Shown here piece after piece: positions 8,723 to 16,728 of a DNA stretch of 32,000 nucleotides (position 1 is its first letter; every line of letters starts with the position of its first letter). The notes below the pieces were generated by a model that was not told the origin of the DNA, did not search any database, and saw nothing but the letters and a program-made list of their open reading frames with translations. The position numbers and the translations under genes were made by a program. The stretch covers positions 1 to 32,000 of the forward strand of contig NZ_LGHJ01000006.1 in NCBI RefSeq assembly GCF_001306055.1, given 5' to 3'. The stretch is from Bellilinea caldifistulae (lineage in GTDB: Bacteria; Chloroflexota; Anaerolineae; Anaerolineales; Anaerolineaceae).

Positions 8723-10606
8723 ATGAAACGGCTGGCGGTGTTGGGGATGATTGTATTGCTTGCCGGTGGGCTGTTTACAGCCGCACTCCCTGCGCCTGCG
8801 CCGGTACTCGCCGAAGAAACGACACCCGAAGCGCCCAAACGCCTGACCACCCTCCAAATCAACTTTGAACGCCACGAGTGGTGGCTGGTGCGCTGGAAAA
8901 ATAACGAGATCACCTGCCGTTTTCTGGTGGAACACGAAGGCCTGCCGATTGCCGATGAGATTCGCGTGTGGTGTGGGACGACCCTCTACAACGAATGGCT
9001 GGCCACCAAACCCTGTGCGCTTACCTCACCGGATCAGTCCCTGCAATCCTGCCCCGGTTTGTACCTGTTTCACTTTACCAGTTATCCGGCCAGCAAAGAA
9101 GTCAATGTGGAACTACCCCTGCCGGCGGTGTGGGTCAGTGTGACCGGTTGTACCCCCCAGCCGCCCGGTAATCGTTGCGAAAGTCTGCCTCAATTGCTGC
9201 TGACCGGCGAAGAGCCGCTGCCTAATGAGACCATCATCAGCATTCAGGGAACGCTCAACGGCAATCCTTTTGTTTGCAATGGGGATGCCTGTGCCATTCC
9301 CTTGCAGCCAACCGGTCAGGGAGGGGTGACGGTCGAGTTTTGGGCCGACTCGAGCTTTGGCGATTCCAGCCCAAAATTCAGCGCCTTGGTGCGGGTCATT
9401 CCGCAGGGAGATTTTATGTCGCCGGAGGGAGTTTCCACGGACAAACCGCTCTACTACGTGGATGTGTTGAGCAGTCAGTGGCGCGGCGGTGCGCTGGCTT
9501 CCTGTTCCGATATCTGGGGATCGTTTCCGCCGATTGGCGGGCCGGCCCCGTGGCTGACCACGCCGCAAGACCCGCAGGAATTGTACTCGGCAGTCAGCCT
9601 GTATTATCTGGCGGGGATGCTGATTGCCAACGGCGAAGTGGACGCCAGCGAATGCCGCGATGGCGGACTGGCAACCCCGTTGACCGCCAGCGAATGCGGT
9701 GTGCGCGCAGCGTATGAGCAGGTGGTGGCCTGGCAAAACCGCTTCGATGAGGAAATCTGGAATGTGGCGCAGGATACGGGTGTGCCGGCTCAACTGCTGA
9801 AAAACATTTTCAGCCGCGAAAGCCAGTTCTGGCCGGGCATCTACCGCAATTACAAAGAAGCCGGTCTTGGACAGTTGACCGAAAAAGGCGCCGATACGGT
9901 CTTGTTGTGGAATCCGAGTTTCTTTGACCAGTTCTGTCCGCTGGTGCTGCACCAGAGTCGTTGTGATCTCGGTTTCGGTAATATCAAGGAAGATGAGCGG
10001 GCGCTGCTGCGGGGTGCCCTGGTGGGCAAGGTCAACGCTGCCTGTGCCGACTGCCCGGCGGGGATTGACCTTTCACAGGCGCATTTCAGCATCCGCGTGT
10101 TTGCTGAGGGGATGATCGGCAACTGCGAGCAGGTGGGGCGGGTTTTGAACAACCTGACCGGCAAGACGGCCGGTTCGGTGGCGACCTATGAAGACCTGTG
10201 GCGGTTTACGCTGGTCAATTACAACGCCGGGCCGGGCTGTCTGGCTACGGCGGTGCGCAAAGCGCTCAGTTTGGGTCAGCCGTTAACCTGGCAGAATGTT
10301 TCGGCTCAGTTGGAGCCAGCCTGTCAGGGCGCGATCAAGTACGTCAACGACATCAGCCAAAAGTTGAGCGGGGTTCAGCCTACGCCGACTTCGTGGGTGT
10401 ACCCCGGTCAGCCGCCGCCGCAGGCCACCGTAGTTACCCTGCCGCCGGGTGTCACCCCCGTGCTTCAGCCGACTCTGCCACCGGGGGCAACCCCCCAACC
10501 GGGTGCGACGCCTCAGCCCGGCTACCCGCCACCGCAAGCCACCCCGGTTGAAGGCTATCCCTATCCCGTCCAGCCCACCCCCACGTTTTACAACCCCTAC
10601 CCTTAA
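8723..10606 (+). CDS. secreted lytic transglycosylase (SLT-like) domain protein with Cys-rich N-terminal region and Pro-rich tail
   Basis: Signal peptide present. FSRESQFWP...AGLGQLTEKG and LVNYNAGPG resemble the SLT catalytic E-S, GLMQ and AYNAG motifs. 627 aa. Confidence 0.72.
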   Translation: MKRLAVLGMIVLLAGGLFTAALPAPAPVLAEETTPEAPKRLTTLQINFERHEWWLVRWKNNEITCRFLVEHEGLPIADEIRVWCGTTLYNEWLATKPCALTSPDQSLQSCPGLYLFHFTSYPASKEVNVELPLPAVWVSVTGCTPQPPGNRCESLPQLLLTGEEPLPNETIISIQGTLNGNPFVCNGDACAIPLQPTGQGGVTVEFWADSSFGDSSPKFSALVRVIPQGDFMSPEGVSTDKPLYYVDVLSSQWRGGALASCSDIWGSFPPIGGPAPWLTTPQDPQELYSAVSLYYLAGMLIANGEVDASECRDGGLATPLTASECGVRAAYEQVVAWQNRFDEEIWNVAQDTGVPAQLLKNIFSRESQFWPGIYRNYKEAGLGQLTEKGADTVLLWNPSFFDQFCPLVLHQSRCDLGFGNIKEDERALLRGALVGKVNAACADCPAGIDLSQAHFSIRVFAEGMIGNCEQVGRVLNNLTGKTAGSVATYEDLWRFTLVNYNAGPGCLATAVRKALSLGQPLTWQNVSAQLEPACQGAIKYVNDISQKLSGVQPTPTSWVYPGQPPPQATVVTLPPGVTPVLQPTLPPGATPQPGATPQPGYPPPQATPVEGYPYPVQPTPTFYNPYP

Positions 10607-11272: not shown

Positions 11273-12214
11273 TTACTCGCTAACGGGCTGAAAACGGCTG
11301 CCTAACTCCGCCTGAATTTCCTGCTGGTGGGCGAAAATAAAATCCCAAAAGACGGCTGCGGCGCTGCTGAGCGGATTGAGCCGGTGGCGAGTCATGTAAA
11401 TTTGCTGTTCAAGATGAACGCCGCGTATGGACACAGTGCGTACATCCGGCAGGATCAGGTTTTGCAGCACCATCTGAGAAACAAAACCCACCCCCACGCC
11501 ACGCTGAACGGCAACCGCAATCGCCTCTGAATTGCCCATGCGCAGCACCAGCGCTAATTCGTGGATGTTGATGCCGTGCCTCGCCAGCGTTTCTTTGACT
11601 ACGCGGAAAGTGCCGGCGCACTCCTCGCGCAGGATGAAGCGTTCGTTTTTAAGTTCCTCCACTTCGATTTCCCCGCGCCTCGCCCACGGGTGATTCGCCG
11701 GCACGATCAGGTGAATGGGGTCGGTTATGAAGGGGCGGAATTCGTAGTGGTGATCGAACTCGTCAATACTGCTGGAAAAGGCAAAATGGGCTTCCCCTTT
11801 CTCCAGCATCTCCAGCGCACCTATTCGACTCATCACCAGGCACTGAGCGCTGACCCGCGGATAATGGCGTAAAAAGTCACTCACCACCACCGGCAGGACG
11901 TACTTGCCCGGGGTGGTGCTGCAGGCAATCGTTAAAAAGCCGCTGATCTGCCCGCGGCTGGCATCCACCACCTCGCGCGCCCGCAGGTTGAGGGTGACCA
12001 GCTGGCGGGCAACCGGTAAGAAACTTTCACCCGTCTGGCTTAGCTGTAACCTTCGCCCGCTGCGCACGAATAAAGCCTCGCCCAATTGATTTTCTAACGC
12101 CTGAATGGTTTGGGTGACGGCGGGCTGGGAGAGATTCAGTTTTTTGGCTGCCTGAGAAAAGTTGAGCGTTTCGGCAGCCACGATAAAAACGCGCAACTGG
12201 TGGGGGTCAAACAT
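11273..12214 (-). CDS. LysR family transcriptional regulator
   Basis: N-terminal wHTH FSQAAKKLNLSQPAVTQTIQALENQLG plus a LysR substrate-binding domain. Divergent from the cytochrome/rhodanese genes. Confidence 0.92.
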   Translation of the reverse strand: MFDPHQLRVFIVAAETLNFSQAAKKLNLSQPAVTQTIQALENQLGEALFVRSGRRLQLSQTGESFLPVARQLVTLNLRAREVVDASRGQISGFLTIACSTTPGKYVLPVVVSDFLRHYPRVSAQCLVMSRIGALEMLEKGEAHFAFSSSIDEFDHHYEFRPFITDPIHLIVPANHPWARRGEIEVEELKNERFILREECAGTFRVVKETLARHGINIHELALVLRMGNSEAIAVAVQRGVGVGFVSQMVLQNLILPDVRTVSIRGVHLEQQIYMTRHRLNPLSSAAAVFWDFIFAHQQEIQAELGSRFQPVSE

Positions 12215-12227
12215 GACATACTCTCTT

Positions 12228-12245
12228 TTTATAAGGAAAACTTAT
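12228..12245. promoter_or_regulatory. LysR-type box (ATAAG-N5-CTTAT, fits T-N11-A); TTTATAAGGAA motif repeated at 12319-12329
   Basis: Palindrome at 12231-12245, just downstream of a minus-strand TAGAAT (12249-12254), which is a typical autoregulation position. The 11-nt motif TTTATAAGGAA recurs next to a plus-strand TAGAAT (12314-12319). Confidence 0.4.
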
Positions 12246-12274
12246 CCAATTCTATCATGAGTTCCAATGATGGA

Positions 12275-12292
12275 TTGTGACAATATTCACTA
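12275..12292. promoter_or_regulatory. Rex/CRP-FNR-like palindrome TTGTGAC-AATA-TTCACTA upstream of the cytochrome gene
   Basis: Matches 12 of 14 specified positions of the Rex operator consensus as I recall it (TTGTGAA-N4-TTCACAA). It also fits TGTGA-N6-TCAC(A). It is centred about 42 nt upstream of the transcription start predicted from the TAGAAT at 12314-12319. Confidence 0.4.
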
Positions 12293-12356
12293 ACTGACAG
12301 ATTAAACAAACCTTAGAATTTATAAGGAAGTGTATTCCCCGTAAAAGGAGCAAATT

Positions 12357-12608
12357 ATGGGAAAATTACGCATCTGGCTTGGATTGCTGGCAGGGTTCTT
12401 GATTCTGCTGGCGGGCTGTGCGCGGGCTACTCAGCCGGCCCCAACCGCCACCAGTGAGGTCCCTGCCCGGCCGACCGCTCCTGCTGCAACCGCCACCTCC
12501 CAGCCGCAGGTCAATTACTGCGTCGAATGCCACACCGACAAAGACCGCCTGATTCAAACGGCTAAACCGGAGGAAGAGGTCATCGAAGAATCGGAAGGGG
12601 CTGGCTGA
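12357..12608 (+). CDS. N-terminal segment of a multihaem c-type cytochrome lipoprotein (signal peptide, lipobox, 1 CxxCH), ending at an in-frame TGA
   Basis: AAGGAG SD 7 nt upstream. Lipobox LLAGC and one haem motif CVECH. It is in the same frame as 12618-13721 and separated from it only by TGA plus 3 sense codons. Confidence 0.7.
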   Translation: MGKLRIWLGLLAGFLILLAGCARATQPAPTATSEVPARPTAPAATATSQPQVNYCVECHTDKDRLIQTAKPEEEVIEESEGAG

Positions 12609-12617
12609 GGGGGCGAA

Positions 12618-13721
12618 GTGGCTCCGTTGGAGCCTTGGGAGAAAGTTTTAGTTAGCGCCAGTTTTCTGGAAAGTACGCACGGACAGTTTACCTGCGTGCA
12701 GTGCCATGGCGGAACCCAATCACCCGACAAGGACACTGCCCATACTAATCTGATTGCTAACCCCTACACCGACAGTGTCGGCCGCTGCGACCGCTGCCAC
12801 GCCGAAATCATGGCCACCTTCCCGGATAGTCTGCATGCCTCACTGTCGGGCTACCCGGTTGCCATGCAATCGCGCAGCGTACCGGAAAACCACCCCGCCC
12901 TGCAGGAAGCCTACAACAATCACTGCTCGAAATGCCACAGTTCCTGCACCGATTGTCACATTACCCAACCGCAGCACCTCGGCGGCGGCTTTCTGGATGG
13001 TCATAATTTTGTCAAAACACCGCCGATGACGCGTACCTGTACGGCCTGCCACGGCACGCGGGTGGGAGATGAGTACCTCGGCAAGCACGAGGATATCCCT
13101 GGCGATGTCCACTTCCGGGTTGGGCGGATGAACTGCGTTGCCTGCCACAGCGGCGAGTCGCTCCACAACACCCCGGCGGATGCGCGCGGCAACCGCTACT
13201 GGGGCGAGCAGTCACCGGCCTGCACCACCTGCCACACCACGGTTGGGCAAAAAGACGACCCCATCTTGCAGCATACCATCCACGGGGAAAAATTATCCTG
13301 TCAGGTGTGTCATTCGGTCAGTTACACCTCCTGCGATGGCTGTCATGTGGCCATCAGTGATAAGACCGGCCAGCCGTTCTTCCGCACCGAAGCCACCTAC
13401 CTGACCTTCTTTATCGGTAAAAATCCCCTGGATAACCAAAACCGCCCCTACGAGTATGTGCCGCTGCGGCATGTGCCGGTTGCCCCGACCAGTTTTGAGT
13501 ACTACGGCGAAAATCTGCTGCCCAATTTTGATTTGCGTCCGACGTGGATGTACGCTACCCCCCATAACATCCAGCGCAAGACGCCTCAAAATCAGTCCTG
13601 CAACAGTTGTCATGGAAATGCGGCTATTTTCCTGACGGCTGATAAGGTCAAACCGGAGGAGTTGAACGCCAACCAGCGGGTGATTGTGGAAGAGATACCC
13701 GCTCCCATTCCGGGACAATAA
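12618..13721 (+). CDS. decahaem c-type cytochrome segment (10 CxxCH), no signal peptide of its own
   Basis: Haem motifs CVQCH, CDRCH, CSKCH, CTDCH, CTACH, CVACH, CTTCH, CQVCH, CDGCH, CNSCH. The nominal GTG start has no SD or export signal. It is most parsimoniously the continuation of 12357-12608 (454 residues in total). Confidence 0.8.
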   Translation: MAPLEPWEKVLVSASFLESTHGQFTCVQCHGGTQSPDKDTAHTNLIANPYTDSVGRCDRCHAEIMATFPDSLHASLSGYPVAMQSRSVPENHPALQEAYNNHCSKCHSSCTDCHITQPQHLGGGFLDGHNFVKTPPMTRTCTACHGTRVGDEYLGKHEDIPGDVHFRVGRMNCVACHSGESLHNTPADARGNRYWGEQSPACTTCHTTVGQKDDPILQHTIHGEKLSCQVCHSVSYTSCDGCHVAISDKTGQPFFRTEATYLTFFIGKNPLDNQNRPYEYVPLRHVPVAPTSFEYYGENLLPNFDLRPTWMYATPHNIQRKTPQNQSCNSCHGNAAIFLTADKVKPEELNANQRVIVEEIPAPIPGQ

Positions 13722-13748
13722 AAACTATTTTAGTGAGAGGAAAGAAAG

Positions 13749-15482
13749 ATGAACCGAAAAATTGCTTTACCGCTAATTCTCATCATCATCCTGAGTATGC
13801 TGCTGGGCGCCTGTGCCCCGGCGGCTACCCCCACTGCCGCGCCGGTGGTTGAACCGACCACCCCACCGGTTGTCGAGCCCACCGCGGTACCCACCGCCGA
13901 ACCGCAGCCCGAACTGGATATTCTCGCGCTGTGGAGCGGTCTGGTAGCCGAACTGCCGGCTGAAAAGGGTTATGGCACCGTCAGCGCCACAAAACTGAAT
14001 GAGGATCTGGCTGATAATCCGCCCTTCCTTTTGGATGTGCGCGAAGCTGCCGAAGTAGAAAAGGACGGCTACATTGAAGGGGCTGTGAATATCCCAATTC
14101 GCCAGTTGTTGCAGAATCTGGATAAATTGCCGGCGATGGACAAGCCGATTGTGATCTACTGCGCTTCCGGCCATCGCGGCGGATACGCGCTGGCTGCCCT
14201 GAAACTGCTGGGCTATCAGAATGTGCGCAATCTGGGCGGCGGTTTGGGCGCCTGGAAGAAAGCCGAACTGCCGGTGGTTACCGGCTCACTGCCTGCCGCC
14301 CCGGCCGCCGGTAGCATGCCGCAAATCAAAGATCAGGCGCTTTTTGACCTGCTCAACGACTGGCTGAGCAACCTGCCGGAGGGCTTCCGCACCGTCAAAG
14401 CGGACAAACTGAACAGCGACCTGGCGGATGGTAAAAAGGTCTTTTTGCTGGATGTGCGCAACAAAGCCGAGGTCGAAAAGAACGGTTTTATTGGCGGCAG
14501 CACCCACATTCCCTTTGAGGAATTATTTGCCAAACTGGATCAACTACCCGCCAAAGATGCCGAGATTGTGATCTACTGTGCATCCGGCCACCGCGGGGCG
14601 ATTGCTCAAATGGGGCTTGCCCTGCTGGGTTATGAAAAAGTCGTTAACCTGGGGGGCGGCCTGAATGCCTGGAAGGCAGCCGGTTTTGCCGTGGAAGGCG
14701 TGGTGGACTGGAACGCCCTGTGGGGCGATTTCCTGACCAACTTACCCGGGGACTTTTACACCATCTCGGCTACCAAACTCAATGAACAGCTGGCTGATAA
14801 ACCGCCTTTCCTGCTGGATGTGCGTGAAACTGCCGAACTGGAAAAAGATGGTTATATCGAAGGGGCTGTTCACATTCCCGTCCGCCAGCTGCTGGATAAT
14901 CTGGACAAACTGCCGGCGCAGGATCAGCCAATTGTGATCTACTGCGCCTCCGGCCATCGCGGGGCGTTTGCGCTGGCGGCTTTGCGCTTCCTTGGTTATA
15001 CCAATGTAGTCAATCTGGGCGGTGGCCTGAACGCCTGGAAGAAAGCCGAATTACCGGTTGTGACCGGCTCGCTGCCGGCAGAGCCACCCGCCGCTACTGC
15101 TCCGGCGGTGGATGCCCTGCGGCTGGAGGGACTGAAAGCCTTCTTCGCCGGTCTGCCGGAAGGTTTTGGCACCATCAAAGCGGCCGACCTGAATGCCGCG
15201 CTTGGCGAAGCCAGCAAACCATTCGTTTTGGATGTCCGTACCGAAAAAGAATGGAACGAGGAAGGTTACATTGAAGGTTCAGTACTGATTCCGATCAACC
15301 AGTTGTGGGGACGGCTGGCGGAACTGCCCGGCAAGGATGCCCGTATCGTCGTGCTGTGCAAATCCGGTCATCGCGGTGCGCTGGCGATGATGGCGTTGCG
15401 CATGAATGGCTACACGGATGTGGTCAATCTGGGCGGGGGGTTGAACGCCTGGGCGGCCGCCGAACTGCCGCTGGTGAAGTAA
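13749..15482 (+). CDS. exported lipoprotein with four tandem rhodanese (sulfurtransferase) domains
   Basis: Lipobox LLGAC followed by a Pro/Thr/Val linker. Four rhodanese modules each retain an active-site loop: YCASGHRGG, YCASGHRGA, YCASGHRGA, LCKSGHRGA. GAGAGGAAAG SD upstream. Confidence 0.88.
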   Translation: MNRKIALPLILIIILSMLLGACAPAATPTAAPVVEPTTPPVVEPTAVPTAEPQPELDILALWSGLVAELPAEKGYGTVSATKLNEDLADNPPFLLDVREAAEVEKDGYIEGAVNIPIRQLLQNLDKLPAMDKPIVIYCASGHRGGYALAALKLLGYQNVRNLGGGLGAWKKAELPVVTGSLPAAPAAGSMPQIKDQALFDLLNDWLSNLPEGFRTVKADKLNSDLADGKKVFLLDVRNKAEVEKNGFIGGSTHIPFEELFAKLDQLPAKDAEIVIYCASGHRGAIAQMGLALLGYEKVVNLGGGLNAWKAAGFAVEGVVDWNALWGDFLTNLPGDFYTISATKLNEQLADKPPFLLDVRETAELEKDGYIEGAVHIPVRQLLDNLDKLPAQDQPIVIYCASGHRGAFALAALRFLGYTNVVNLGGGLNAWKKAELPVVTGSLPAEPPAATAPAVDALRLEGLKAFFAGLPEGFGTIKAADLNAALGEASKPFVLDVRTEKEWNEEGYIEGSVLIPINQLWGRLAELPGKDARIVVLCKSGHRGALAMMALRMNGYTDVVNLGGGLNAWAAAELPLVK

Positions 15483-15504
15483 GCGCCTTTATTCGGTACA
15501 CAAT

Positions 15505-15544
15505 ACAGGCAGGTGAGGGAACACCCCCGCCTGCCTGTTTTTTT
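15505..15544 (+). terminator. strong rho-independent terminator ending the cytochrome-rhodanese unit
   Basis: ACAGGCAGG-N16-CCTGCCTGT followed by a T6 run. Confidence 0.85.
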
Positions 15545-15570
15545 CTCGTTGGTTTGGTAGAAGGCTGTAA

Positions 15571-16728
15571 TCAGCCCATTTTCCCCAAAGCGCTCATCAG
15601 CCCACGGTAGCCGCGCTCGCCGCGCAAAACCTCATCCACCTCAATTGCCTCATCCACGCGGTGAGCCTGATGAATTGAACCCGGCCCAAAGACCAGCGTG
15701 GGGATGCCGCGCTCGCCGCCGCTGGCGCTGCCGTTGGTGCAGTAGGGCACGGCAAAGGTCTCGCCCGGCAACCCGGCCGAGCGGAGCGCCTCCACCGCCC
15801 GCCCCACCCATGCCGAAGCCGGGTCGAGCGCCCAGGCCGGGTGAAAGTCGGGCTGGCGCAGTTCTACCCCCGTGTACGTGGTAAAGCCCTCTTCAGGGAT
15901 GACTACCTGCCAGTTGCTCAGGTCGGCCAGATGACGGGTATATTCTTCCAGCAGGCCGGAGATCGTTTCGCCCGGCATCAGCCGCCGGTCATAAACCACT
16001 TCGCAGCGGTAGGGCGTGGTGGAAAGGCTGGGATAAGGCTGCGATTGTACCTGTATGGCGGTCATCAGCCCCTGTCCCAGCAGAGGGTGAGTCGGCAGTG
16101 GCAGGTTGGCAATTCGCTCAATGAGCGCGGCGGCATTTTCGATGGCGTTTTGACCGGCTTCCGGAGCGGAACTGTGGGCGGCTTTGCCGGAGACGGTGAA
16201 GGCCAGCCGTGCCCGACCGCGCTGGGCAATTCCCAGCCGGCAGTCGCTCGGCTCGCCGATGATGACCAGATCGGGCTGGACTGCCTCCAACACAGCCGAG
16301 AAAGCTGCACCTTCCAGCACTTCTTCGCCGAGGCTGGCGGAGAGATAAACTTCCCCGGCCAGGTCATCAGCGGAAAGGCCGGCCAGAGCGAAAGTCATCG
16401 CCGCCAGACTGGCTTTGGTATCGGCTGCGCCGCGCCCCCAAACCCGCCCATCGGACAGTTCGCCGCTGAACGGCGGGAAGCGCCATTCCTGGGGAGAAGT
16501 GGCCGGAACCACATCCAGATGCGCGTCGAACAGTACCCGCAATCCCGAACGGCGGCTGCCGCGTCGCGCGAGGACGTTCCCCAGCCGGTCGGTGTGGACA
16601 TCTTCAAAGCCCAGATCCCGCCAGGTCCGTTCGACCAGCCCGGCAGCGGCTTCTTCCTGACCGCTGAGACTTTCGGCTCGGACCAGTTCCTGCAAAAAGC
16701 GAATGGTTGGGTGATCGGAAAGCGGCAT
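15571..16728 (-). CDS. M20 family metallo-hydrolase (YgeY/ArgE/DapE-like)
   Basis: FDAHLDVVP, GRGAADTK, GEP(S)D..IAQRGR....V.G.AAHSSAPE.G.NAI, DRRL.PGET and TNGS...GIPT.VFGPG...AH..DE blocks. From memory these resemble E. coli YgeY more closely than ArgE. An HMM search is needed to decide. Confidence 0.85.
   Translation of the reverse strand: MPLSDHPTIRFLQELVRAESLSGQEEAAAGLVERTWRDLGFEDVHTDRLGNVLARRGSRRSGLRVLFDAHLDVVPATSPQEWRFPPFSGELSDGRVWGRGAADTKASLAAMTFALAGLSADDLAGEVYLSASLGEEVLEGAAFSAVLEAVQPDLVIIGEPSDCRLGIAQRGRARLAFTVSGKAAHSSAPEAGQNAIENAAALIERIANLPLPTHPLLGQGLMTAIQVQSQPYPSLSTTPYRCEVVYDRRLMPGETISGLLEEYTRHLADLSNWQVVIPEEGFTTYTGVELRQPDFHPAWALDPASAWVGRAVEALRSAGLPGETFAVPYCTNGSASGGERGIPTLVFGPGSIHQAHRVDEAIEVDEVLRGERGYRGLMSALGKMG

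Follow-up and report, generated by a model that had tools for sequence, protein, structure and literature searches.

A probable selenocysteine cytochrome with eleven haems, encoded beside a four-domain rhodanese lipoprotein in Bellilinea caldifistulae

Introduction

In Geobacter sulfurreducens, the ext cluster (extHIJKL) encodes a rhodanese-like lipoprotein, ExtH, and a selenocysteine (Sec) cytochrome, ExtKL (GSU2937-2936) (PMC5877670). ExtKL, now called MccSep, was demonstrated in August 2026 to reduce polysulfide, its preferred substrate, and selenite, and S0 respiration requires it (PMC13510729). It is a homotetramer with five haems, and its Sec325, contributed by an Ig-like domain at the C-terminus, acts together with Cys239, a haem ligand (PMC13510729; PDB 9wt8). 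A 2026 catalogue of prokaryotic selenoproteins lists as cytochromes only ExtKL, the GSU2204 family (NF041027) and the OTR-family octahaem proteins (TIGR04315) (PMC13188914). Here we describe a two-gene module from a 32-kb stretch of the Bellilinea caldifistulae genome (contig NZ_LGHJ01000006.1, positions 1 to 32,000 of the forward strand; hereafter the window, from whose first letter all coordinates are counted). Its first gene encodes an 11-haem cytochrome that is very probably a selenoprotein, and its second a rhodanese lipoprotein with four domains. The module resembles the MccSep/ExtH system but is, as judged by sequence comparison, unrelated to it and convergent.

A second point of reference is Wolinella succinogenes, where Sud, a polysulfide-sulfur transferase, feeds the polysulfide reductase PsrABC. 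Sud/PsrABC and the present module have in common an extracytoplasmic carrier of rhodanese type, a respiratory reductase (here proposed) and an NrfD plus iron-sulfur (FeS) input, whose genes lie near the module in three of the relatives discussed below (L007, L008 and L023). The catalytic subunit of PsrABC is a molybdopterin enzyme, whereas here it is proposed to be a Sec multihaem cytochrome, and neither the window nor the relatives' loci hold a Mo-pterin gene.

The elements of the locus are as follows.

11273-12214, minus strand: LysR-family regulator of 313 residues, divergent from the cytochrome gene (PF00126 and PF03466)
12231-12245: candidate LysR-type binding box ATAAG-N5-CTTAT with a T-N11-A dyad, found by phylogenetic footprinting
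12357-13721, plus strand: undecahaem c-type cytochrome lipoprotein, 454 residues with UGA counted as Sec84
12606-12608, plus strand: UGA, probably read as Sec (U84), in the motif E-G-A-G-U-G-G
12620-12634, plus strand: candidate hairpin GGCUCC-GUU-GGAGCC, resembling a selenocysteine insertion sequence (SECIS); weaker pairs widen it to 12618-12636
13749-15482, plus strand: tetra-rhodanese lipoprotein of 577 residues, with predicted catalytic Cys138, Cys277, Cys399 and Cys537
15505-15545, plus strand: intrinsic terminator (stem 15505-15538, then U7) closing the two-gene operon

Results

A module like, but not homologous to, the Geobacter system

The likeness to MccSep and ExtH covers an exported multihaem c-type cytochrome, a gene split by a Sec UGA, a SECIS-like hairpin just downstream, a rhodanese-family lipoprotein encoded alongside, and the occurrence of Cys types beside Sec types. 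The two also differ. The cytochrome here has 11 haems, compared with five in MccSep; its putative Sec is N-terminal (residue 84 of 454, in G-U-G-G) rather than in a C-terminal Ig-like domain (D-G-U-P); and it is a predicted lipoprotein, in contrast to the soluble periplasmic tetramer formed by MccSep. Its rhodanese partner, of four domains, is directly adjacent, with no porin (ExtI) and no ExtJ, unlike the Geobacter ext cluster, and the hosts are mainly Chloroflexota, as against Desulfobacterota and Nitrospirota for MccSep. Because the cytochrome has no Cys outside its haem motifs and lipobox, the His/Cys-haem/Sec triad of MccSep cannot form here.

Searches with family models agreed. The MccSep/ExtKL model NF040886 gave no match at E <= 0.01, and the MccSep chains 9wt8 and 9wt9, though present in the PDB library, were not retrieved by phmmer (E <= 10) or by the family profile. 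The rhodanese scored 16.9 bits (E = 0.0024) against the ExtH model NF040901 (selenite/tellurite reduction operon rhodanese-like protein), far from its cut-off of 200, which leaves it outside that family. A preliminary description of this DNA had held the pairing of such a cytochrome with a rhodanese to be undescribed; this overstated the case, given the Geobacter ExtH/ExtKL precedent (PMC5877670, PMC13510729), but the present module, which is not of those families, is itself undescribed.

With the OTR and GSU2204 families the cytochrome shares only the general property of being a c-type cytochrome family with Sec members, and it had no match to TIGR04315 or NF041027 at E <= 0.01. It is in none of the families of the 2026 catalogue and apparently represents, on these comparisons, a new selenoprotein family, which occurs chiefly in Anaerolineae. 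Literature on selenocysteine or selenoproteins combined with multihaem, Chloroflexi/Chloroflexota, Anaerolineae or rhodanese gave no description of it.

An undecahaem lipoprotein gene with one internal TGA

The cytochrome frame runs from ATG at 12357 to TAA at 13719-13721, with a single internal TGA, and holds 11 CxxCH motifs, one ahead of the TGA and 10 past it. A signal peptide and the lipobox LLAG-C21 precede the first of these, and the product is predicted to be an exported, membrane-anchored lipoprotein. All 23 Cys are accounted for, 22 by the haem motifs and one by the lipobox, and no free Cys remains in the mature protein. Residue 84, in a Gly-rich acidic linker 25 residues past haem motif 1, would be the sole free chalcogen residue of the mature cytochrome.

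The family to which this protein belongs comprises 143 clusters (50% identity, E <= 1e-30). No NCBIfam model reached its cut-off; the best family similarities, all weak, were to DmsE/MtrA-type decahaem and NrfB-type cytochromes, and the score against the DmsE/MtrA decahaem conduit model TIGR03508 (31.4 bits, cut-off 192) does not place it in that family. Sequence and profile searches of solved structures returned marginal similarity only, to NrfA (haem 4-5 region) and to cytochrome c7, and neither assignment was accepted. The NrfA match concerns the region directly past the Sec (profile E = 7.5e-4). An AlphaFold2 (AF2) model of P0032, a full-length Cys-type homologue, was built from a 44-sequence alignment and had a mean predicted local distance difference test score of 55.4, as expected without haems; Foldseek of this model against the PDB returned nothing.

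Public records name the relatives 'hypothetical protein'; several from JGI use 'thiosulfate/3-mercaptopyruvate sulfurtransferase' instead. The latter label is carried by the protein hits P0010, P0029, P0050, P0077 and P0112, all of them truncated cytochrome open reading frames (ORFs) without a rhodanese domain, and may be annotation spill-over from the neighbouring rhodanese gene.

The TGA codon is conserved among relatives

We took the best 120 protein homologues from a collection of 5.8 billion proteins and inspected the DNA of 17 genome loci (45-96% amino-acid identity), together with five further loci (L020, L021, L023, L026 and L027). The 17 loci are all from Chloroflexota metagenome-assembled genomes, bar one bin labelled Nitrosomonadaceae. 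A TGA stands at the homologous codon, within the motif G-x-G-U-G-G, in 16 of the 17 and in all five further loci, that is, in 21 of the 22 relatives whose DNA was read, down to 41% identity and in more than one type of host. Upstream of it, the 16 TGA-type loci keep an in-frame signal peptide and the first CxxCH (C-x-x-C-H-T-D-K), and so do the five further loci. This conservation is hidden in the protein databases: 116 of the 120 best homologues were called as proteins of ~365 residues starting within a few residues of ...APLEPWEK, just past the TGA, and only four carry the N-terminal extension.

Other residues occupy the Sec position elsewhere in the family. Cys is found there in no fewer than eight clusters of greater distance, namely P0032, P0140, P0174, P0181, P0183 and P0206 (as CGG) and the two Cys-Cys clusters named below; in the Cys-type locus L018, the codon differs from the Sec type by TGA to TGT. 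Trp, whose codon TGG is one mutation from TGA, occurs in four clusters (P0122, P0128, P0158 and P0233), Leu or Val in P0075, P0085 and P0118, and a vicinal Cys-Cys (CCGG) in P0155 and P0169. The Trp, Cys-Cys and Leu/Val replacements suggest that Sec decoding was lost repeatedly with differing outcomes. Separately, the vicinal Cys pair is reminiscent of the GCUG motif of thioredoxin reductase.

Genome-wide reassignment of TGA was considered and rejected. TGA is the stop codon of eight of the window's 20 genes, and the one at 12606 is the only internal TGA, so the recoding would be site-specific and not the mark of a variant genetic code. No tRNA gene of any kind, tRNA-Sec included, and no selA, selB or selD lies inside the window. 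SelB has been reported in Anaerolineales, and in Anaerolinea thermophila UNI-1 it is present with no annotated Sec dehydrogenase (PMC4959059).

The preliminary description had mentioned the in-frame TGA as a side remark. It is indeed there, but it is the central feature of the locus rather than a peripheral one, and the 11-haem exported protein can be obtained only by reading through it.

A SECIS-like hairpin maintained by compensatory change

The candidate hairpin begins 11 nt past the UGA, was predicted independently by RNAalifold, and has a G in its apical loop (GUU or GAU). In this register, 92.6% of the cells of the 22-sequence alignment pair; sliding the 3' arm by 1-3 columns lowers the figure to 38-51%. 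The covariation score of the hairpin was reached by none of 500 shuffles. At pair 28-40, 17 sequences have GC, three CG and one AU; at pair 27-41, 21 have GC and one AU. The compensatory changes are GC to CG in L013, L017 and L026, and two GC to AU in L027. They alter the protein, from APLEP to PPLEA in L026 and to TPLEL in L027, in exactly the way that keeps the stem intact.

A test of synonymous sites points to the same place. Over 90 conserved codon columns of at least four-fold degeneracy, the mean codon entropy was 1.39 bits; just four columns showed zero synonymous variation, and these are consecutive, GUG-GCU-CCG-UUG (V-A-P-L), coinciding with the 5' arm and loop of the hairpin. In the non-Sec locus L019, the site reads GCG-CCC-AUG-GAA-CCU and the hairpin is lost. 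Folding of the single 45-nt sequence past the UGA gave a different minimum-energy structure (z = -0.09); the proposed hairpin is thus supported by comparative evidence and not by thermodynamics. An Rfam scan of the hairpin region matched no family, a null result that is uninformative because we know of no Rfam model for bacterial SECIS hairpins of this kind.

That the TGA is instead a genuine stop, separating a small monohaem lipoprotein gene from a separate or decayed 10-haem gene, is how gene callers universally annotate the locus, and a purine run (GAGGGGG) does stand ahead of a GTG at 12618. We nevertheless consider it extremely unlikely. Attachment of c-type haem requires export, and the ORF past the TGA, with its 10 CxxCH motifs, has no signal peptide, so that its product could mature only if fused to the N-terminal lipoprotein signal. 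Moreover, frame, TGA and hairpin are kept in 21 of 22 relatives with compensatory changes, synonymous variation is suppressed at the hairpin only, and the single-nucleotide replacements by Cys and Trp keep the frame open.

Together, these sequences display the features by which bacterial selenoproteins are recognised: a conserved in-frame UGA with coding conservation on both flanks, a downstream stem-loop, and Cys homologues. We hold with high confidence that the cytochrome is a selenoprotein and the TGA at 12606 its Sec codon.

The rhodanese partner and conservation of the pair

The second gene encodes four PF00581 domains (275.9 bits), behind a signal peptide with the lipobox LLGA-C22. Its catalytic motifs read IYCASGHRG three times and VLCKSGHRG once, so that all four domains keep the C-x4-R loop (C-[AK]-S-G-H-R), and motifs and lipobox are conserved across relatives. 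The protein is predicted to be a catalytically competent PF00581 member and an exported lipoprotein.

The nearer of its relatives with solved structures include fused rhodanese domains, those of NADH-dependent persulfide/CoA-disulfide reductases (3nta, 4ocg and 3icr; E ~1e-9 to 1e-10) and that of a persulfide dioxygenase (5ve3). The hand-over of a rhodanese persulfide to a reducing site, as in the fused reductases, is what we propose here. Those enzymes are cytoplasmic flavoenzymes with a Cys/CoA redox centre, whereas here the reducing partner would be a separate, exported haem selenoprotein.

The two genes are 27 nt apart, each with its own Shine-Dalgarno sequence (AGGAG and GAGAGGAAAG), and are closed by a terminator with a 14-bp stem and U7. 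On direct folding it reached -26.6 kcal/mol (z = -4.6), and none of 200 shuffles folded equally well. A generic terminator scan did not call the 15505-15538 stem, apparently because of its pairing and loop rules. These elements, like the LysR gene, the 11 CxxCH motifs, the four rhodanese domains and the two lipoprotein signals, had been listed in the preliminary description and are all present in the sequence.

A rhodanese gene lies directly downstream of the cytochrome gene in L001-L011, L013-L017, L020-L023 and L027, and immediately 3' of it in 20 of 21 Sec-type relatives; L012 and L019 could not be scored for pairing, as the contig stops at the cytochrome. Most partners are tetra-rhodanese lipoproteins of 570-587 residues, and those of divergent lineages have 2-4 domains and an ordinary signal peptide. 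The notion that the pairing is specific to Sec types was rejected: the Cys-type locus L028, 35% identical and with a MarR regulator and different flanks, also has a rhodanese lipoprotein directly downstream.

The preliminary description had proposed gene-neighbourhood conservation as a check, and the pair does recur, in more than 20 independent assemblies. Judged by this gene order, the arrangement is not due to chance. The genes flanking the module are unrelated between loci, so that the two genes, in most cases together with LysR, form a unit of their own. Their association is very probably functional.

Several observations concern the surroundings of the pair in relatives. The distant members L027 (5980-8086) and L028 (5001-7420), at 35-41% identity, stand beside genes for TonB-dependent receptors, with the rhodanese kept downstream; from these neighbours, their hosts are probably diderm bacteria outside Chloroflexota. 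In L015 (409-5559), the neighbouring gene for DNA polymerase III alpha is interrupted by an intein that contains a homing-endonuclease domain of LAGLIDADG type.

Regulation and the question of a selenium-specific module

A LysR homologue is divergent from and directly upstream of the cytochrome in L001-L008, L014, L016 and L019-L022; L011 and L023 have it downstream, and L012 has it ~3.5 kb upstream. In seven of 10 aligned intergenic regions, the ATAAG-N5-CTTAT box has invariant arms and a variable spacer, and we infer from this that the copy at 12231-12245 is a candidate LysR-type box. The intergenic region between lysR and the cytochrome gene also holds a near-consensus CRP-type palindrome, TGTGA-N6-TCACT (12276-12291). 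This stretch is kept in L001 and L002, and its second half-site is altered in L003, L004 and L016. The palindrome points to a further regulatory input in addition to LysR. In L023 (12396-14523), the LysR gene downstream of the pair is followed by genes for a histidine kinase (HisKA_3) and a response regulator (GerE type), suggesting extra two-component control in that lineage.

The regulator bears on whether the module is specific to selenium, serving extracellular selenite reduction or the handling of Se(0) or selenide (detoxification or acquisition), with perselenide on the rhodanese and LysR sensing selenium. The top NCBIfam match of the LysR protein is NF040786, 'selenium metabolism-associated LysR' (E = 3e-64), although its 216.9 bits fall under the 250-bit cut-off and L028 has MarR in place of LysR. 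The cytochrome would itself be a selenoprotein in a host committed to selenium use. MccSep reduces selenite too, and the ext cluster was first tied to selenite/tellurite reduction (PMC13510729, PMC5877670), yet MccSep favours polysulfide ~sevenfold by Vmax/K0.5 (PMC13510729). Four rhodanese sites and 11 haems, moreover, resemble a high-flux respiratory device rather than a trace-element system.

A further hint of selenium handling had been seen in the preliminary description, in the gene next to the module. This M20 peptidase gene (15571-16728, minus strand) is YgeY-like (308.7 bits to NF009555, below its 321-bit cut-off; 206.5 bits to TIGR03526), but it adjoins the module in L001-L004 only and not at more distant loci. 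Such local synteny is not evidence for selenium handling, and the hint has to be dropped. The YgeY-like gene and a GNAT gene, tried as members of the module, were rejected because their synteny is limited to the closest relatives. On balance, we find a selenium-specific module unlikely.

The remaining genes of the window are housekeeping genes (miaB, tyrS, clpP, peptidases and others). Upstream, 8723-10606 (plus strand) encodes a secreted protein of 627 residues with a Pro-rich C-terminal tail and no Pfam or NCBIfam family match; in L001 and L016 it keeps its syntenic place ahead of the module, and in L010 the gene just before the cytochrome is a copy with 45% identity.

Electron-input genes in relatives

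The window contains no gene for a quinol dehydrogenase (NrfD or NapC), a Mo-pterin protein or an FeS protein, as the preliminary description had stated. This holds for the 32 kb; some relatives do have such genes beside the pair. On the minus strand of L007 (1486-5533) and L008 (1370-5518), LysR overlaps the gene for a multihaem cytochrome of ~340 residues, which is followed by genes for an FeS protein (Fer4_11) with a twin-arginine translocation (Tat) signal and for NrfD. An equivalent three-gene set (multihaem cytochrome, FeS and NrfD) lies ~4 kb downstream in L023 (15326-17275). In L026, a 17-haem variant, a Tat-signal FeS gene comes directly after the cytochrome (2509-2796), and in L017 a multihaem cytochrome of 302 residues follows the rhodanese (9066-9974). 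Across these lineages the neighbouring multihaem cytochrome has ~300-400 residues. From its composition, the multihaem-cytochrome/Tat-FeS/NrfD set is likely to be a quinol-linked electron input of NrfBCD/PsrBC type.

Discussion

We infer the substrate, the direction of electron flow, the hand-over between Sec and rhodanese, and the electron donor as follows. The two-gene operon, under divergent LysR control, would produce a membrane-anchored extracytoplasmic Sec cytochrome and a four-domain rhodanese lipoprotein. The rhodanese Cys residues would bind, in persulfide form, sulfane sulfur that stems from polysulfide or elemental sulfur, and perhaps selenium likewise, and the rhodanese would present the bound sulfur to the cytochrome. 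There, the Sec84 selenolate in the Gly-rich loop G-x-G-U-G-G would attack it to give an Se-S intermediate, which electrons from the 11-haem chain would reduce with release of sulfide. The likeliest source of these electrons would be the quinol pool, tapped by a multihaem-cytochrome/FeS/NrfD module encoded elsewhere in this genome. Since the cytochrome lacks a resolving Cys, a rhodanese thiol would be the natural second chalcogen, and this would explain the tight pairing.

The best explanation of the module is, in our view, a Sec-dependent reductase of persulfide or polysulfide (possibly of selenite) that acts outside the cytoplasm, receives its sulfur bound to the rhodanese and is convergent with the Geobacter system, a reading that, drawn by analogy, we credit about as much as we doubt. 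For the substrate taken separately, a chalcogen (persulfide or polysulfide, possibly selenite), our confidence stands evenly balanced. More tentatively, this may be a persulfide/polysulfide reductase of a new type, in which the Sec of the 11-haem lipoprotein serves as terminal nucleophile, with sulfur on the four-site rhodanese as co-substrate and without a His/Cys haem or Mo. Of the preliminary description, the core idea of an extracytoplasmic sulfur or selenium redox module under LysR stands and is strongly supported, on comparative grounds, by the conserved pairing and the conserved LysR-type box, with two points of it corrected.

Several observations weigh against this reading. The substrate is assigned purely by analogy; orthology gives no licence to transfer function, since neither protein is a homologue of MccSep or ExtH. 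The electron-input module is missing from the window, and cultured Anaerolineae are described as fermenters and are not known to respire with sulfur compounds. Sec is dispensable in some lineages, those of the Leu, Val and Trp types; L019 has Val and an insertion at the Sec site in the same synteny as the Sec-type L021, and the Cys-type loci L018, L024 and L025 have no adjacent rhodanese. The AF2 model is too poor to place the Sec relative to any haem. Finally, 11 non-motif (distal) His are conserved, equal in number to the haems, which suggests a wire with bis-His ligation throughout and no obvious open catalytic haem.

This last point fits a general wire for extracellular electron transfer (to Fe(III), humics or between species), to which Sec and rhodanese would be accessory or protective. 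The weak resemblance to DmsE/MtrA-type decahaem and NrfB-type cytochromes and the replacement of Sec by Leu, Val or Trp in some lineages are in keeping with such a wire. The matches to conduit families are, however, far under cut-off (for example, 31 versus 192 bits), and a wire explains neither the upkeep of a costly Sec codon and SECIS across the family nor a catalytic multi-rhodanese as the one near-constant partner. We regard it as quite unlikely.

The direction of flow could also be reversed, as NrfD-family complexes can run either way. Thiosulfate, sulfide or persulfide would then be oxidised by an enzyme working as TsdA or SoxAX do; Sec would stand in for the Cys that ligates the haem, and electrons would pass to quinone through the NrfD-type module. 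The likeness to TsdA and SoxAX would lie in sulfur chemistry at a chalcogen beside a c-type haem, and the marginal similarity to the NrfA haem 4-5 region falls just past the Sec. TsdA and SoxAX differ, however, in using Cys rather than Sec, two haems, His/Cys ligation and no rhodanese partner. NCBIfam and PDB sequence searches showed no similarity of the cytochrome to them and no Sox or Tsd homology. In favour of this reading, the chemistry of TsdA, SoxAX and MccSep centres on a haem-adjacent chalcogen ligand (PMC13510729). Against it, the 11 conserved His suffice as ligands for all haems, and the hosts, anaerobic fermenters, have no evident high-potential acceptor. An oxidative role is, we judge, very unlikely.

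The proposed Sec-dependent reductase lends itself to direct testing, because Sec is the only free chalcogen residue of the mature cytochrome. It was not until 2026 that Sec-dependent multihaem reductases were recognised as the basis of sulfur respiration in bacteria, and then solely for Desulfobacterota and Nitrospirota. If our reading is correct, a second, unrelated cytochrome family has assembled the same parts, namely a Sec codon and its SECIS-like hairpin, a chain of haems and a lipoprotein of rhodanese type, joined in some relatives by an NrfD-type module. Systems joining a Sec multihaem cytochrome to a rhodanese would then have arisen at least twice independently, and their reach would extend to Chloroflexota. 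With at least 116 of the 120 closest entries mis-annotated as short 'hypothetical proteins' that start past the Sec, the family has been invisible to surveys of selenoproteomes and of cytochromes.

Chloroflexota rank among the most abundant bacteria of anaerobic digesters and sediments, and models usually treat them as pure fermenters. If the reading holds, the orphan SelB of Anaerolinea thermophila would be explained, and the 'obligately fermentative' Anaerolineae of digesters, sediments and the subsurface would possess a respiratory electron sink for sulfur (or selenium).

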